Shown here: positions 2,429-52,772 of the stretch, piece by piece
Numbering within the stretch: the stretch's first letter is position 1
Layout of the letters: every line of letters begins with the position of its first letter
Sequence record: OL960581
Strand: one strand, 5' to 3'
DNA from: Escherichia phage vB_EcoM_SA20RB
DNA: 64,000 bases
Notes under the pieces: generated by a model
What the model was told of the DNA's origin: nothing
Seen by the model: only the letters and a program-made list of their open reading frames with translations
Database searches by the model: none
Made by a program: the position numbers and the translations under genes

Positions 2429-2458
2429 ATTATACCACATCCTTGTGGTAAAGTAAAC
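2429..2458 (-). promoter_or_regulatory. early promoter with spacer hairpin (upstream of rIIA.1)
   Basis: Minus strand GTTTAC, 18 nt containing CCACAaggaTGTGG, TATAAT. Confidence 0.7.
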
Positions 2459-45065: not shown

Positions 45066-45275
45066 TTAACCCCGAAGCTTATTAAGTTCTTCATAATCAA
45101 TCCAGGATTCTAATCCTGATGGCAAATCAGATTCAATTTCCCAAAGAAGTTCTTCAATTTTATGAAGACGATCTAGTTCTTCAGCAGGAATAGTAACCAT
45201 TGACGGAGCTCTTGCTACACTAATATCGTAAATCATATTTACCCCAGTTTGACCATGCAATCGCCGTATTTCCAT
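45066..45275 (-). CDS. hypothetical small protein
   Basis: 69-aa ORF. Confidence 0.4.
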   Translation of the reverse strand: MEIRRLHGQTGVNMIYDISVARAPSMVTIPAEELDRLHKIEELLWEIESDLPSGLESWIDYEELNKLRG

Positions 45276-45454
45276 TTAGAAATAGACTTTTCACCGTTAG
45301 AATAATAAACTTCGAGTTTAGCACGATTATTTTTAATTTGAATAACCTTTGCTGTCATCAAAGTTCCATACCCGTAATAAACTGCAACCTCATCACCTAC
45401 ATATACCGCGCTTCCGCGGTAGTCATGGATATAATCAGTTCCTTCGAGCATCAT
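45239..45454 (-). CDS. hypothetical small protein
   Basis: 71-aa ORF; overlaps the nrdC stop by 4 nt. Confidence 0.45.
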   Translation of the reverse strand: MMLEGTDYIHDYRGSAVYVGDEVAVYYGYGTLMTAKVIQIKNNRAKLEVYYSNGEKSISKWKYGDCMVKLG

Positions 45455-45715: not shown

Positions 45716-45958
45716 TTATTCCTTAATTCCTAGTACTTGTTTAAAAGTCTCGTCGTAATCAAGACTTTGACCCGTTTGTTCTTTATGTTTGTATATAATA
45801 TCACTTACTTCTGATAGCATATTTTTATATGAACGAGTTAAAGCAGATTTAAGCACGCTGTATCTATCAGGAAATTTACCGTGTTCATTATAATACGCTA
45901 TTGCTAATTCACGGACTGCCTTTTCAGCAATCTCCATATATTCTTTACGCTTGGTCAT
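45716..45958 (-). CDS. hypothetical protein (nrdC.1 slot)
   Basis: 80-aa ORF. Confidence 0.5.
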
Positions 45959-46262
45959 TTTCTTCTCGGTTAAATCGGTGTTTACAATGACGACATTTAT
46001 AACGAAGATTACTAGTCTGCCAATGAATTAATTGAACCTGTTCAGTACCACATTTTGGACAGTTCGGAACATTCTTAGAAACCCTTTCGCGGCGTTCAAC
46101 CATAACCATAATGGCATCCCAGGCTGGAGGTTTAAAATCTAAATCATCACAACCATGAATCTTTCCACGCATTTCCAGATCGTCTTCTTCACCAGCCATA
46201 ATAATTTTAATTAGACTGGAATTACTTGAAGCTGCAATATCTTCTAATAGACGCTTTTTCAT
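45945..46262 (-). CDS. zinc-ribbon protein (nrdC.2 slot)
   Basis: 105 aa with CPKCGTEQ...CRHCKHRF. Confidence 0.5.
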
Positions 46263-47188
46263 TTCAATACCTCAATAGCATTACGTAAACCATTTGCTTT
46301 TGCATTAAGAGCTTTTAACAATTTAGTGTGTTCGGCAATTTGGGCTTCAACTTCAATCAAACGAGCATTGAGATATTCGCGTTCTTCGCTCAAGCTATCA
46401 ACCTTTTCTACTTTAGGTTCTTTTACAACTGGCTTATATGTATTAGGGTTCTTCAGTTTAATTAGAATACGTGAACTGTATAACATTGAACCATTATTTT
46501 CGATTTCGTCATACATTTCTACTACGTCCATGATTTTTAACATCATGCGGAGTTTATAAGATAACGAACGAATAGTTTTGTTGTGCTTATTAATTTCTCT
46601 AGCTGTCATGGTGCCGAGATTACGTGAGTAATAATAAGGAACCTGGATATTAATTAACACTGATGAACCACCTGGCTTGTGTGTTACTTCATCAGCAATA
46701 ACCCAGTCCTTAACATGAACTGTATTTGTACGGTCATCACCAGCGGTAAATAGTTTGCGAGCATGCTTAAAAAGCATATTCACTTGGTCATTGAACTGAC
46801 AAGCAAATTTATCAGCAAATTTAGTTTCAGGAATGGTAGATAACCAATCAGCCAAATGAGTCTTTTTAACATCGTTAACAATAGTAAATTCAACCAAATC
46901 GGTTATAGATGTCGCAGATTTAATGAAGCTTGGCTTCATAAAGTTTTTAATGTTATCGCGAGCTACAGTAGAAGATAACATACGAGAACGTTTAAACCAT
47001 TCAAGCAAATTGCCTAACGAATGAGAATAAGCGTTTTGAGTATCTTTACAGATATGATTTTCCTGACCAACATATTGAAGGAAATCACGAAGAATATTAT
47101 TGATTACTGCTCTGTGTCCAATCTGATAACTACGGTGTTTAGTAATAAGACTGTCAAAATAATCAATATAATGTTTACGAGTTTTCAT
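46259..47188 (-). CDS. coiled-coil-tailed family member A
   Basis: 309 aa; shares KIMDVVE and tail heptads with 47241.., 48300.. and 49337.. Confidence 0.6.
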   Translation of the reverse strand: MKTRKHYIDYFDSLITKHRSYQIGHRAVINNILRDFLQYVGQENHICKDTQNAYSHSLGNLLEWFKRSRMLSSTVARDNIKNFMKPSFIKSATSITDLVEFTIVNDVKKTHLADWLSTIPETKFADKFACQFNDQVNMLFKHARKLFTAGDDRTNTVHVKDWVIADEVTHKPGGSSVLINIQVPYYYSRNLGTMTAREINKHNKTIRSLSYKLRMMLKIMDVVEMYDEIENNGSMLYSSRILIKLKNPNTYKPVVKEPKVEKVDSLSEEREYLNARLIEVEAQIAEHTKLLKALNAKANGLRNAIEVLK

Positions 47189-47240
47189 GTTCTTCTCACT
47201 TGGTTAATGATTTATACTCCGAGCCATCCTTGGCTTTAAA

Positions 47241-48242
47241 TTACTTAATTAACTGTAAAGCTTGTTCAAGACGATCCAGGCGATTAACAGATTCTTCCCA
47301 AATCCTTTTAGCCTGCTCATATTCTTTCTGCGCTTTATTAGAAATTTCTAGAGCTTCTTTATAAGCTTTTTCTAGTGCAATAACTTCTGGACGAATTTCT
47401 ACAGGTTCAGGCGAATCATCAAGATTATCCATTAGTTCCTCAAGTGTAATTTCTTCTTTAGGAGTATTCACAATTTCATCACATTTTTGTTGGTAAATTT
47501 CTTTATCAGTCGGTGAGTACGCACATTTCACTTCACGAAGACTAACTACAATTTTATATCCTTCCCAACCACACATATTTTTGAAAGGATATGTATGAAT
47601 ATTTTCTACTGTTTCCATACAAAGTAATGCGGTTTCTAATTGACGAGTTATAGTGCTAGCAATTGAGAAAAATTTATTAATGTTCTTTTGGTTAGTTTCT
47701 GGTGTAAAAAATCCATAATTCACAAAAATAGATACTTTATTTTTATCAAGTTCATATTCTTTTATGATAATCATATCAGAAGCCAAAGGATGAATTTGAC
47801 GATAATCGCCATAACATAATTTAGAAGCTGATTTTAGAAGTTGCTTCTTGAAAAGTCTGAAATTACTAATCCAACGACGAGTAAAAATATTCTCAGGGTC
47901 TTCTTTATTATTAAGATGATAAGAATTAACATCACCGAACCAATTATATCCTACTACATCTTTGGTTCGTTTAATTTCTTTCCCAAAATTACCAAGAATA
48001 TCCCGATTAACCAAATATGAAAGAAGACGAGACTCTTTAAAGGTTTTCTTGATAACATCTTTATCTACACGGCTAGAAATTTTACGAATTTCATGAATAA
48101 ATTTAACAGAAGAAACAATACTTGCGTCAACACTATTGAGCCATTGATTGATAATAGAAATAACGCTATTTTGACCAAACATCGGTATAGCTTTATCATC
48201 AATAACACTATTGAATGATTTGATATATTCGTTACGAGTCAT
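47241..48242 (-). CDS. coiled-coil-tailed family member B
   Basis: Trimmed to MTRNEYIKSF (333 aa) because early promoter 48271-48300 lies in the track extension; motifs FKKQLLKSASKL and CMETVEN. Confidence 0.6.
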   Translation of the reverse strand: MTRNEYIKSFNSVIDDKAIPMFGQNSVISIINQWLNSVDASIVSSVKFIHEIRKISSRVDKDVIKKTFKESRLLSYLVNRDILGNFGKEIKRTKDVVGYNWFGDVNSYHLNNKEDPENIFTRRWISNFRLFKKQLLKSASKLCYGDYRQIHPLASDMIIIKEYELDKNKVSIFVNYGFFTPETNQKNINKFFSIASTITRQLETALLCMETVENIHTYPFKNMCGWEGYKIVVSLREVKCAYSPTDKEIYQQKCDEIVNTPKEEITLEELMDNLDDSPEPVEIRPEVIALEKAYKEALEISNKAQKEYEQAKRIWEESVNRLDRLEQALQLIK

Positions 48243-48270
48243 ATTAATCTCCTCAGTAGAAAGTAAGAAC

Positions 48271-48300
48271 ATTATACCACATCCTTGTGGCAAAGTAAAC
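48271..48300 (-). promoter_or_regulatory. early promoter with spacer hairpin; 32-nt near-copy of 2429-2460
   Basis: attataccacatccttgtgg(c/t)aaagtaaacta is shared with the rIIA.1 promoter, one mismatch. Confidence 0.7.
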
Positions 48301-49328
48301 TAGTTCAGTGCATTTAGTGCATTGTTCAGTTTAGAACGTTGCTTCGTGAGATTTTTGACTTTTTCTTGAGCTTTTTCTAGCATCTTTTCAGCTTCTAACA
48401 CTTCATTAGTTGCTTTAACGAGTTCATCATCTACTGCCTTGATAGACTTCTCAATCGCATCCGCGTGCCATTTTTCAACAGGTTTAAGACTCGGATTTTC
48501 AACAGGAAGAAAATTCGCTTTATTGAATTTCCATGCATCCTTATTACCTGAACTATACATCCAAAATTTAGGATCGTTTGATGAGTAATTGGATAAATTT
48601 AAATTTAAGTTATCTTGCACTTCTTGCTTTTTCTCTTGCGTGACTTCGTCCTTTCTCAAAAAATCGTATTTAAATGAAATGATCATATCAAGTTCATATG
48701 TTGTTGTGTCTAATTTAAATCGTTCGAAATGCTGTGAAATCTTAGACTGAACAGCAGCAACAACGTCCATATACTTAAATGCTTCTGTCAACTGTGATTT
48801 AAGGCATTCGCAAATTGAAAGAGAATTTTTTGTATTAGGTTTAAAGCTAATTCGTGCAGTTCTGTTATTTTCTTTTAATGGTCTTACTTCCATCTGAAGA
48901 GTATAACCATCAAATTTCAGATTCTTTAAGTTAATATCAGAACCTTTTAATCGACTCGCAGTTGATAAAATTTGCTTTAATTGTCTACGGAACAGAGCAA
49001 TAAATCTCCATTCAATACGATAATGATTTGGATTGAAAAATCCAGATGATAAATCGACCTTACTTTGACCAACGCCTTGAACAAATAGAGGATTTTTATA
49101 ATCGATAGTTTTACAGAAATCGGTGAGCTGCTCACGAGCCGTCATTTGTGTAATATAACCCGCTTTACTAAAATTACGCACCCATTCACTGCTATTCGTA
49201 TACTTAAAGTGATGAATAACACGATTAACTTTATCAGGGTCTAAATTATTTTCACACAAAAATGTCATAACATCACGAGTATAACTGGCATTACGAACCA
49301 TATCTTCAATTTGAGAACGAGTTTTCAT
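48300..49328 (-). CDS. coiled-coil-tailed family member C
   Basis: 342 aa; motifs FRRQLKQILSTASRL and KYMDVVA; tail ...LEAEKMLEKAQEKVKNLTKQRSKLNNALNALN. Confidence 0.6.
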   Translation of the reverse strand: MKTRSQIEDMVRNASYTRDVMTFLCENNLDPDKVNRVIHHFKYTNSSEWVRNFSKAGYITQMTAREQLTDFCKTIDYKNPLFVQGVGQSKVDLSSGFFNPNHYRIEWRFIALFRRQLKQILSTASRLKGSDINLKNLKFDGYTLQMEVRPLKENNRTARISFKPNTKNSLSICECLKSQLTEAFKYMDVVAAVQSKISQHFERFKLDTTTYELDMIISFKYDFLRKDEVTQEKKQEVQDNLNLNLSNYSSNDPKFWMYSSGNKDAWKFNKANFLPVENPSLKPVEKWHADAIEKSIKAVDDELVKATNEVLEAEKMLEKAQEKVKNLTKQRSKLNNALNALN

Positions 49329-49336
49329 GGTATTCC

Positions 49337-50227
49337 TTAAGATTTAAGTAAATCAACAATTTTAATTAACTTTTCACGCTCAGATTTAGCTTTACTACTC
49401 AATCCAGATAGTCTGAAAATTTCATCGTCATATTGTTGAATAGAAATATTCAGCTCTTCAATCTGCTTATTAAAATAATCAATTTGTTCAGAATGTTTTT
49501 CGTTACTACGAACTGGTACAGGTTTTGTAGGCAATTTAGTTGAACTGGATTCATCCGGACGATAAATTAAAATACAACTTGAACCAATAGGGCATTTTGC
49601 ACCAGATGAATATTCTAATGTTCCAGCTTCTTTTAAAACTTCAAAAGCTAAACAGAGATGATGCCCCATATTAACATAATCTGTAGAGTGAGCTCTGATA
49701 TAATAATCATCTCCACGAATACTAAATTTAAAGCATTTAAGGTCTTCTGTATTATTGGTCTTAAAAATCATTTGTTTATCTAGACCTTTAGCTAATCGAG
49801 CGCCTAATGCTAATAATCGTCGTTGATTTTCCCACAAATCTGCAATCATTTGGTCAAATGATAACTTCGGCATTAGTCGACCATAAAGGTCATATCCTTT
49901 ATTGTAATTACGAAGGATTTCACTCGCATTAATACGAGACAACGCTCCAATTTTATTAAGGGCTTTCATAATGCGATTAGATAAACTCATTCCAGACCCG
50001 TTTGTTCGCTGTAAATGTTTTTCTAATCCAAATCCAATATCAACTTTAAACTTATCTAAAATTTCAGCATGAACATCTCTGTCGATAACATTCAAATCCA
50101 AAGTTGGGTTAAATCTATGAAAAAATTTATCTGGCTCTCCACGGCGAAGTACAGTCCATTCATTCATCATTTTTTTATTAACTAAAGATTTAATTACTGC
50201 ATTGACATTATTAATTACTACTGACAT
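49337..50227 (-). CDS. coiled-coil-tailed family member D (most diverged)
   Basis: 296 aa from MSVVINNVNAV, preceded by GAGGAAAA; tail ...LSGLSSKAKSEREKLIKIVDLLKS. Confidence 0.55.
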   Translation of the reverse strand: MSVVINNVNAVIKSLVNKKMMNEWTVLRRGEPDKFFHRFNPTLDLNVIDRDVHAEILDKFKVDIGFGLEKHLQRTNGSGMSLSNRIMKALNKIGALSRINASEILRNYNKGYDLYGRLMPKLSFDQMIADLWENQRRLLALGARLAKGLDKQMIFKTNNTEDLKCFKFSIRGDDYYIRAHSTDYVNMGHHLCLAFEVLKEAGTLEYSSGAKCPIGSSCILIYRPDESSSTKLPTKPVPVRSNEKHSEQIDYFNKQIEELNISIQQYDDEIFRLSGLSSKAKSEREKLIKIVDLLKS

Positions 50228-50697: not shown

Positions 50698-51225
50698 TTA
50701 TGCGAGTACCGTCTTTAACCGTTCTTCAAACTTCCGAAGAGTATTTTGGCGTTCAGCTCTTTGCTTTTTGTAAGTTTCAATACGCTCTGAAATGAGAGTG
50801 TATCGTTCATTTACTGATTCTTTCATAAAATCAGGAATTTCACGAGAAGCTTTAATCTCGTCAAATTTATCAATAACAGCTTGCTCTTCAGCAATTAAGT
50901 TATCATACATTAAAATATCTTTCTTGATGAACTCAATATCTTCTTGAGTTACACGAGATAATTTAGATGCTTTATCCTTTTTGTACTGTTCGTTAGTATC
51001 ACGAGACCAGTGCAATGTACGATTTTTATTCGTATTTTTGTAAATTTCTACAATACCGATCTCATCAATAATAACGATCCAATTCCAACGGGATTTGTAA
51101 ATTTGTCCTCCATCAACAGTGATTTCACCTCCGATTGAGATGTCGTTAAAGAACTTGCTTTGTGCTTCAGATTTAAATTTACCATCGTTGTAATTTACCA
51201 AGTTGAAAATATCTTTAGCGTTCAT
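50698..51225 (-). CDS. hypothetical protein with coiled-coil tail
   Basis: 175 aa; C-terminal ...ERIETYKKQRAERQNTLRKFEERLKTVLA. Confidence 0.5.
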   Translation of the reverse strand: MNAKDIFNLVNYNDGKFKSEAQSKFFNDISIGGEITVDGGQIYKSRWNWIVIIDEIGIVEIYKNTNKNRTLHWSRDTNEQYKKDKASKLSRVTQEDIEFIKKDILMYDNLIAEEQAVIDKFDEIKASREIPDFMKESVNERYTLISERIETYKKQRAERQNTLRKFEERLKTVLA

Positions 51226-52741: not shown

Positions 52742-52752
52742 GAAATAAAAAA

Positions 52753-52770
52753 GGGAGCCCGAAGGCTCCC
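52753..52770 (-). terminator. rho-independent terminator after the nucleotidyltransferase gene
   Basis: GGGAGCC-UUCG-GGCUCCC followed by U6. Confidence 0.8.
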
Positions 52771-52772
52771 TA

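Follow-up and report, generated by a model that had tools for sequence, protein, structure and literature searches.

Diverged tandem paralogs of the anti-Dsr1 gene nrdC.5 as candidate counter-defence genes in T4-like phages

Introduction

No phage has been studied better than T4, and still about half of its genes are without a known role. The nrdC.x region raises this question for four adjacent genes, nrdC.3, nrdC.4, nrdC.5 and nrdC.6: do they form one family, and what could such a family do during infection? They were analysed here in a stretch of 64,000 nucleotides (nt) of Escherichia phage vB_EcoM_SA20RB (sequence record OL960581), hereafter called the window. An initial annotation of this stretch, made without database searches, had described four open reading frames (ORFs) as diverged tandem paralogs with heptad-rich C-terminal tails, and had proposed that they constitute an undescribed counter-defence module. 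The analysis reported below supports a single family, one member of which is very probably an anti-Dsr1 factor, while the three others are good candidates for factors directed against other defences.

The four genes and their T4 counterparts

The window belongs to a Tequatrovirus, that is a T4-like phage, and the 4-kb block carrying the four ORFs shares 97.3% identity with Enterobacteria phage IME340; of the 656 phage records that it matches, almost all are Tequatrovirus. The four ORFs are all present as co-oriented, tightly packed genes on the minus strand, with intergenic gaps of 52, 57 and 8 nt. Comparison with the annotated T4 record identified them as nrdC.3 (46259-47188; 309 amino acids, aa), nrdC.4 (47241-48242; 333 aa), nrdC.5 (48300-49328; 342 aa) and nrdC.6 (49337-50227; 296 aa), sharing respectively 61% (with a different allele), 96%, 95% and 98% aa identity with their T4 counterparts. 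The block occupies the slot between nrdC/nrdC.2 and nrdC.7, in a synteny identical to that of T4, which supports orthology and agrees with the initial placement in the T4 nrdC.x slot.

Domain databases distribute these proteins over several families. Indeed, (i) nrdC.3 and nrdC.4 fall into the same PHROG, phrog_1435, with E values that do not exceed 1e-116 (1e-116 for nrdC.3), and their close homologues all carry the precomputed family PF26897 (Phage_T4_Y04OP), (ii) nrdC.5 scores 420.7 bits over its full length against DUF7235 / PF23882 (Pfam, E 5e-126), for which the gathering threshold is 30 bits, and (iii) nrdC.6 matches phrog_2257 (E 1e-152), and 105 of 105 nrdC.6 homologues carry the precomputed family PF26899 (Phage_T4_Y05B).

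Evidence for a single family

The paralogy perceived in the initial annotation was borne out at three levels of sensitivity, namely by BLASTP for nrdC.3 and nrdC.4, by profiles for nrdC.5 and by Foldseek for nrdC.6. At the first level, nrdC.3 and nrdC.4 share 24.7% identity over 271 aa (BLASTP E 5e-8; hhalign probability 98%). At the second, a profile of 38 nrdC.3/4 sequences matches a profile of nine nrdC.5 sequences with a probability of 95.2% and an E value of 2.7e-8 over 252 columns in register, while 20 column-shuffled controls and one reversed control gave at most 1.0%. The motifs that had been picked by eye as equivalent (FRLFKKQLLKSASKL / FRRQLKQILSTASRL; CMETVEN / KYMDVVA) pair up in this hhalign alignment, and the two members said to start with MKTR are nrdC.3 and nrdC.5. 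This sequence evidence strongly supports the view that nrdC.3, nrdC.4 and nrdC.5 are one family. An out-of-register hhalign match between nrdC.3 aa 14-135 and nrdC.5 aa 151-271 (94-97%, significant against shuffles), which would have suggested an internal duplication or permutation, was rejected as an artefact because it was gone with a clean 14-sequence nrdC.3 alignment; its source was P0202, a natural nrdC.5::nrdC.3 hybrid present as a contaminant in the earlier, small alignment.

The body of nrdC.6 gave a profile-profile probability of 2% or less against the other three families, and nrdC.4 and nrdC.6 were therefore modelled for a structural comparison, using AlphaFold2 with family alignments (predicted local distance difference test scores of 83 and 77.5, respectively). 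In Foldseek searches against BFVD, the nrdC.4 model matched nrdC.3 of phage fPS-65 (E 2e-8) and nrdC.6 of phage JS10 (E 1.5e-5, prob 1.0). Furthermore, the nrdC.4 and nrdC.6 models share seven matches, all to uncharacterised Straboviridae proteins of ~300-370 aa (from PM2, IME523, Acj61, Acj9, Cronus, Mineola and fHe-Yen9-01), and from the middle of the body onward they have the same order of elements, H-H-h-E-E-H-E-E-linker-helix.

A body motif, W-x6-h-x2-L-x2-[AG]-[SA]-[RK]-L-x2-G-[DS], is located at aa 124-146 of nrdC.4 (47805-47873, minus strand) and was aligned between nrdC.4 and nrdC.5 by hhalign; the equivalent stretches are 46733-46807 in nrdC.3, 48936-49010 in nrdC.5 and 49778-49834 in nrdC.6, also on the minus strand. 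F128, G145 and R148 are invariant in alignment A1, and the corresponding invariant residues in the nrdC.6 family are N134-G142, R144-A146 and G148. The motif is present as well (EFNYNWRMILTLGSRLCVG) in the single-copy protein of the Kanagawavirus IME523, which is matched by the hidden Markov models (HMMs) of all three families and carries an nrdC.6-like tail (hhalign probability against the nrdC.6 tail 89.6% over 41 columns, 32% identity). There is consequently good, model-based evidence that nrdC.6 belongs to the same family, through its fold and its tail rather than through the sequence of its body.

This family was seen only in T4-like phages (Straboviridae), and nrdC.5 has twelve representatives at 50% identity among 1.84 billion proteins. 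At the DNA level, no repeats were found between the paralogs beyond a 13-nt microhomology, so the duplications are old.

Protein architecture

In the nrdC.4 and nrdC.6 models, the body begins with a helical bundle and continues as an alpha/beta domain of two layers; it is followed by a disordered linker of 15-25 residues and then by an amphipathic helix of 45-55 aa. In nrdC.4, for example, the helices span residues 3-84, the alpha/beta part 88-259, the disordered segment 261-283 and the terminal helix 285-332. As the initial annotation had noted for the N-terminal domains, no catalytic motif could be recognised: the searches gave no enzyme match, and the family alignments contain no invariant residues of a catalytic kind across families. 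A weak match of nrdC.3 aa 30-86 (46931-47101) to the SAM-like (core-binding) N-terminal domain of XerC/D tyrosine recombinases was observed (Pfam E 0.061, NCBIfam E 0.0016; range E 0.0016-0.06), far below the curated cut-offs.

The heptad-rich character of the tails was recovered in all four families, with long terminal helices in both models. Indeed, the last 42 residues of each family have conserved hydrophobic positions at a 3.5-residue periodicity (shuffle p 0.011 or less), and the tails share the ending L-x3-[AIL]-x-x-[LV]-[LI]-[KN]. The tail is moreover better conserved than the body in 13 of 13 ortholog comparisons between genera. The predicted amphipathic helix or coiled-coil tail of nrdC.3 (aa 262-309; 46262-46405, minus strand) has a periodicity p of 0.0025 and an identity of 0.75-0.81, against 0.59-0.75 for the body. 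In nrdC.4 (aa 285-333; 47244-47390, minus strand) a single helix of 48 residues is modelled (p 0.0015; tail 0.61-0.67 versus body 0.42-0.48). The amphipathic tail of nrdC.5 (aa 291-342; 48303-48458, minus strand) has a p under 0.0005 and its best heptad score, 1.0, at aa 296-330. In the model of nrdC.6 the tail (49340-49501, minus strand) is split at SGLSS into one helix of aa 243-272 and another of aa 278-295 (tail 0.59-0.69 versus body 0.29-0.41). Between paralogs of one genome, tail-only hhalign probabilities are 35% or less. A solvent-exposed terminal helix of this length, as modelled, would be expected to pair, be it with another copy of itself or with a partner.

A 173-aa ORF on an 803-nt ENA metagenome contig (P0212, L022) joins an unrelated 117-aa N-terminus to an nrdC.5 tail at 95%. 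It was dropped as evidence for the tail being a mobile module on unrelated bodies: because the first 479 nt of the contig match nothing T4-like, it is probably an assembly chimera.

The nrdC.5 phenotype and the proposed role of the array

Dsr1 prevented the infection of the E. coli strain ECOR17 by a T4 clone in which a block of accessory genes was missing, and T4 nrdC.5 supplied in trans restored plaquing of the deletion mutant on MG1655 carrying dsr1 from ECOR17 (Srikant, Guegler and Laub, eLife 2022, PMC9391042). The same paper calls nrdC.5 an early gene; beyond its phenotype it reports nothing on mechanism, fold or relationship to other families. In Dsr1, a SIR2 NADase is fused to an Avs7-like TPR sensor domain, which is reported to recognise, and to be triggered by, the phage major capsid protein (2026 preprint, PMC12803255). 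Given its sequence relationship to the T4 gene, the window nrdC.5 is very probably an anti-Dsr1 factor. The counter-defence idea of the initial annotation was therefore right, and already described for one member, because the T4 ortholog (95%) restores infection of Dsr1-carrying E. coli; what did not stand is the word 'undescribed', since this phenotype was published in 2022.

For the other members the literature offered little: among the papers searched, nrdC.3 and nrdC.6 were named in none and nrdC.4 in a single genome announcement, with regard to a difference between strains, and the same papers contained nothing functional on these three genes and no mention of nrdC.5 paralogs. Searches by family name, by accession and for 'anti-DSR1' returned nothing beyond the 2022 paper. 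Likewise, searches of Pfam, PHROGs, NCBIfam, PADLOC and PDB sequences for a known function by homology gave only domains of unknown function or sub-threshold noise, and a scan of seven proteins against the PADLOC defence models yielded no family with an E value of 0.01 or less.

The explanation that we hold to be somewhat on the probable side is that nrdC.3-nrdC.6 encode a set of inhibitors that are made early and are not enzymes, in which the variable bodies provide target specificity and the conserved tails self-association. The paralogs would be made before the appearance of the late structural proteins by which sensors such as Dsr1 are triggered, since a T4-early-type promoter-like sequence, GTTTACTTTGCCACAAGGATGTGGTATAAT (48271-48300, minus strand; 10 of 12 consensus matches, extended -10), lies directly upstream of nrdC.4. 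This 30-mer recurs once in the window with one mismatch (2429-2458, minus strand), where 0 recurrences are expected by chance, and it looks like an early promoter; the total number of promoter-like sites is not above the shuffled expectation (40 versus 36.6), and the repeated 30-mer was the sole such site treated as meaningful. By analogy with the inhibitor DSAD1 and its target DSR2 discussed below, NrdC.5 probably uses its variable body to bind Dsr1 directly and to block either its activation or its NADase activity. Each variable body would bind one host immune protein, and the self-associating tail would probably make the inhibitor oligomeric, hence multivalent against oligomeric targets. 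The paralogs would then be copies redirected against other proteins of the host, and duplication, divergence, loss and recombination of copies would retune the set to host defences. As paralogs of the published anti-Dsr1 gene, nrdC.3, nrdC.4 and nrdC.6 are good candidates against other defences, by analogy; that at least one of the three is also a counter-defence factor has, in our estimate, a chance slightly short of even.

Divergence, selection and copy number

The four genes had been described as far more divergent than the flanking genes, and this is the case by two measures. With respect to Dhakavirus and Gaprivervirus, the orthologs are 22-50% identical (nrdC.4 44-50%, nrdC.5 22-26%, nrdC.6 46-49%), versus 78-89% for the flanks (nrdC 86-89%, nrdC.11 83-85%, nrdC.10 78%, gp49 83-87%). 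Among eight Tequatrovirus genomes, the ratio of nonsynonymous to synonymous substitution rates (dN/dS) is 0.29 for nrdC.3, 0.17 for nrdC.4, 0.18 for nrdC.5 and 0.12 for nrdC.6 (0.12-0.29), versus 0.01-0.07 for gp49, nrdC, nrdC.1 and nrdC.8-nrdC.11; the population analysis consisted of these eight loci, and the viral-contig scans gave four and five loci. In addition, nrdC.3 comes in two alleles that are deeply diverged, and the window copy shares 61% with T4 where neighbouring genes share 95-99%. Taken together, nrdC.2 and nrdC.3 (45945-47188) form two diverged allele classes in Tequatrovirus, with a mean dS of 0.6-0.8 versus 0.07-0.22 in eleven other genes, a pattern indicative of mosaic replacement through recombination.

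T-even relatives differ in how many copies they have, from one to four across genera and from two to four within Tequatrovirus, a variation that the initial annotation had suggested looking for. Most Tequatroviruses carry four copies; Mosigvirus, Dhakavirus and Gaprivervirus carry three; Jiaodavirus and Kanagawavirus carry one clear member each, plus an unclassed ORF of ~260 aa slightly upstream in the same gene block; and the Krischvirus region examined has none. Matching records by tblastn number 653 for nrdC.3, 553 for nrdC.4, 581 for nrdC.5 and 741 for nrdC.6. Within Tequatrovirus, PD112 is without nrdC.4, and Yersinia phage fPS-2 has only nrdC.3 and nrdC.6, with nrdC.3 placed directly after nrdC.6 at the same 8-nt gap that precedes nrdC.5 in the window. 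The 13-nt identity between the 5' ends of nrdC.3 and nrdC.5 (ACGAGTTTTCATG; 47177-47195 and 49317-49335, repeat family D14, spacing 2140 nt) is likely, from its position, to be the junction of a natural fPS-2-type deletion of nrdC.4 and nrdC.5.

Several rearranged copies were also observed. On scaffold_6 of PASO19-1 (ENA, 167 kb; L023:3570-4900, also L024:1931-3261), nrdC.6 precedes an ORF that retains 115 aa from the N-terminus of nrdC.5; the next ORF of this variant encodes a 299-aa hybrid in which nrdC.5 aa 146-274 are fused out of register to nrdC.3 aa 129-309, and nrdC.4 is missing. This nrdC.5::nrdC.3 hybrid therefore shows recombination between paralogs. In Shigella phage Sf25, nrdC.6 (P0065, 378 aa) has an internal tandem duplication of ~82 residues, its aa 1-258 matching nrdC.6 1-259 and its aa 259-378 matching nrdC.6 177-296. 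In the T4 reference (NC_000866.4, L001:5103-5989), nrdC.6 is annotated with 275 aa and has a frameshift near residue 259 that places the tail in another frame; it matches the window protein at 98% over 259 aa and then at 97% over 37 aa, and the frameshift is either a real tail-less allele of the reference strain or a sequencing error. Finally, tblastn matches limited to the C-terminal tail, at 92-98%, were observed for nrdC.3 in ACG-C40 (NC_019399.1:47512-47727), for nrdC.4 in Manna (PP987310.1:50891-51139) and for nrdC.6 in Pinarejo (PP925831.1:50018-50158), where deletions or replacements seem to spare the tail.

Raised dN/dS, low identity across genera, bodies that evolve faster than tails, variable copy number, the hybrid and the internal duplication together support an arms-race signature.

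Alternative explanations

Several points weigh against an array of inhibitors. The gene-wide dN/dS is below 1 for all four genes, which is relaxed or episodic constraint and not demonstrated positive selection. Many phages are without one or more copies, and nrdC.6 of T4 is tail-less, so some copies may be dispensable or decaying rather than active inhibitors. Experimental support exists for only one of the four members, which might act on Dsr1 indirectly. Self-association of the tails is a prediction, and nrdC.6 joins the family through predicted structures with modest template modelling scores (TM-scores), 0.37-0.48, its profile signal being limited to the tail.

The alternative that best survives, although we consider it unlikely, is that only nrdC.5 serves counter-defence, and that nrdC.3, nrdC.4 and nrdC.6 have other early host-takeover or regulatory roles or are duplicates drifting to loss. 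Drift would fit the natural Tequatroviruses that are without nrdC.4, or without both nrdC.4 and nrdC.5, the records in which tail remnants stand alone, the disrupted hybrid on 167-kb contigs and the frameshifted nrdC.6 of T4; a dN/dS that is raised yet below 1 also fits relaxed constraint. However, every paralog is full-length in hundreds of genomes (553-741 records), and orthologs with conserved motifs and tails have been retained in four genera, at identities of 22-50%, which indicates purifying selection on a function and not decay.

That the four proteins are subunits of one early complex, held together by a hetero-oligomeric coiled coil of their tails, is improbable. The tails are indeed the most conserved part, with a common terminal pattern and a detectable cross-family homology, and the genes are co-transcribed and tightly packed. 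Against this, nrdC.5 from a plasmid was alone sufficient to restore infection by the clone lacking nrdC.5 (a clone that may still carry other paralogs), viable natural phages have one, two or three members in varied combinations, and the tails differ strongly between paralogs of one genome. Lastly, the notion that the four are not one family, the tails being convergent coiled coils and the body of nrdC.6 at least being unrelated, is very improbable: it would agree with the lack of profile similarity of the nrdC.6 body and with the three separate families of Pfam and PHROGs, but it is contradicted by reciprocal Foldseek matches at prob 1.0 with seven shared intermediates, by the identical secondary-structure order of the nrdC.4 and nrdC.6 models, by the motif W..(R/K)..L...(A/G)(S/A)(R/K)L..G(D/S) at the same position and by the single Kanagawavirus protein that all three family HMMs match.

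An inhibitor array remains our preferred explanation, and it has a bolder form, to which we give a small probability, namely a modular, combinatorial jammer of pattern-recognition immunity in which each body occupies the sensor of a different Dsr/Avs-type receptor without activating it. Mimicry of a conserved virion protein might be the means, given the modelled likeness of the bodies to tail terminators (see below), and the tails would form homo- or hetero-oligomers of paralogs, yielding multivalent and possibly multi-specific inhibitors. If this were true, nrdC.3, nrdC.4 and nrdC.6 would each neutralise a distinct immune sensor.

Neighbouring genes

Beyond nrdC.6, the region encodes nrdC.7 (a membrane protein), nrdC.8, nrdC.9, nrdC.10 (an AAA ATPase) and nrdC.11 (an RlaP-type nucleotidyltransferase). 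The last two are the ATPase/nucleotidyltransferase pair that the initial annotation had associated with the array; they are indeed nearby, and no evidence of a functional link was found. A GC-rich hairpin (8 pairs, 6 of them G-C) at 52752-52771, on both strands and with a T-run on the minus strand, lies directly after nrdC.11; it is the best terminator-like site of the region and separates nrdC.11 from nrdC.10.

The fifth ORF, nrdC.8 (50698-51225, minus strand; 175 aa; phrog_2274), had been credited with a similar tail on a different body. Its C-terminal helix is amphipathic, with a periodicity p of 0.0005, and this periodicity is the sole trait that it has in common with the four; homology is not demonstrable, as hhalign gave under 1% against each of the four families. 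With no profile signal, nrdC.8 was left out as a fifth member. It is also far more conserved than the four (68-70% to Dhakavirus, dN/dS 0.03).

Host-antagonising genes are found on the other side: pin (anti-Lon) and, in T4 and T6, gp49.2, an anti-OLD inhibitor (PMC13096335). In the window, the slot between pin/49.1 and nrdC (45069-45454, minus strand) contains no match to T4 gp49.2 or gp49.3 and holds instead an fPS-2-type pair, g084 (annotated 'antitoxin', 93%) and g085 (100%). The anti-defence content of this slot is thus also allelic.

Implications and comparison with known systems

With nrdC.3, nrdC.4 and nrdC.6, three T4 genes that had been orphans turn into concrete counter-defence candidates, and so do hundreds of orthologs in therapeutic T-even phages. 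Since natural Tequatroviruses differ in the copies that they carry, the family also matters when the host range of therapeutic phages is to be predicted. The combination of a variable body with a conserved tail for self-association, if confirmed, would be a design principle that could guide the search for the mechanism of Dsr1 inhibition.

The closest known system is T4 NrdC.5 itself. The window nrdC.5 is its ortholog, with 95% aa identity, the same position and the same DUF7235 domain, and differs from it at ~5% of residues; the other three window ORFs are its paralogs. As regards fold, the best PDB matches of the alpha/beta domain are lambda gpU-like tail terminator or tail completion proteins; a strong fold match combined with a structural-module context, as would identify a tail terminator, was not found. 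As regards mechanism, DSAD1 of SPbeta-like Bacillus phages is described as a non-enzymatic protein that neutralises the SIR2-type NADase defence protein DSR2 by binding its sensor domain in competition with the structural-protein trigger. DSAD1 against DSR2 is the working model that we propose for NrdC.5 against Dsr1, as a functional parallel, no similarity of sequence or fold between DSAD1 and the nrdC.x proteins having been found.

In its genomic setting, the array resembles the T4 anti-defence clusters (the dmd-tifA-adfA 'anti-TA island', anti-OLD gp49.2 and anti-Lon pin), which are composed of small, early, non-essential genes that each act on one host system and are gained, amplified or lost quickly. 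Those clusters consist of unrelated genes, whereas nrdC.3-nrdC.6 arose by tandem amplification within one family and have a tail in common. Pfam catalogues its members as three separate families of unknown function, PF26897 (nrdC.3 and nrdC.4), PF23882 (nrdC.5) and PF26899 (nrdC.6). The evidence presented here joins them into one superfamily, and what appears to be new is the placement of the anti-Dsr1 gene in a superfamily of four members, variable in copy number, with a conserved tail and fast-evolving bodies, that databases have split in three.

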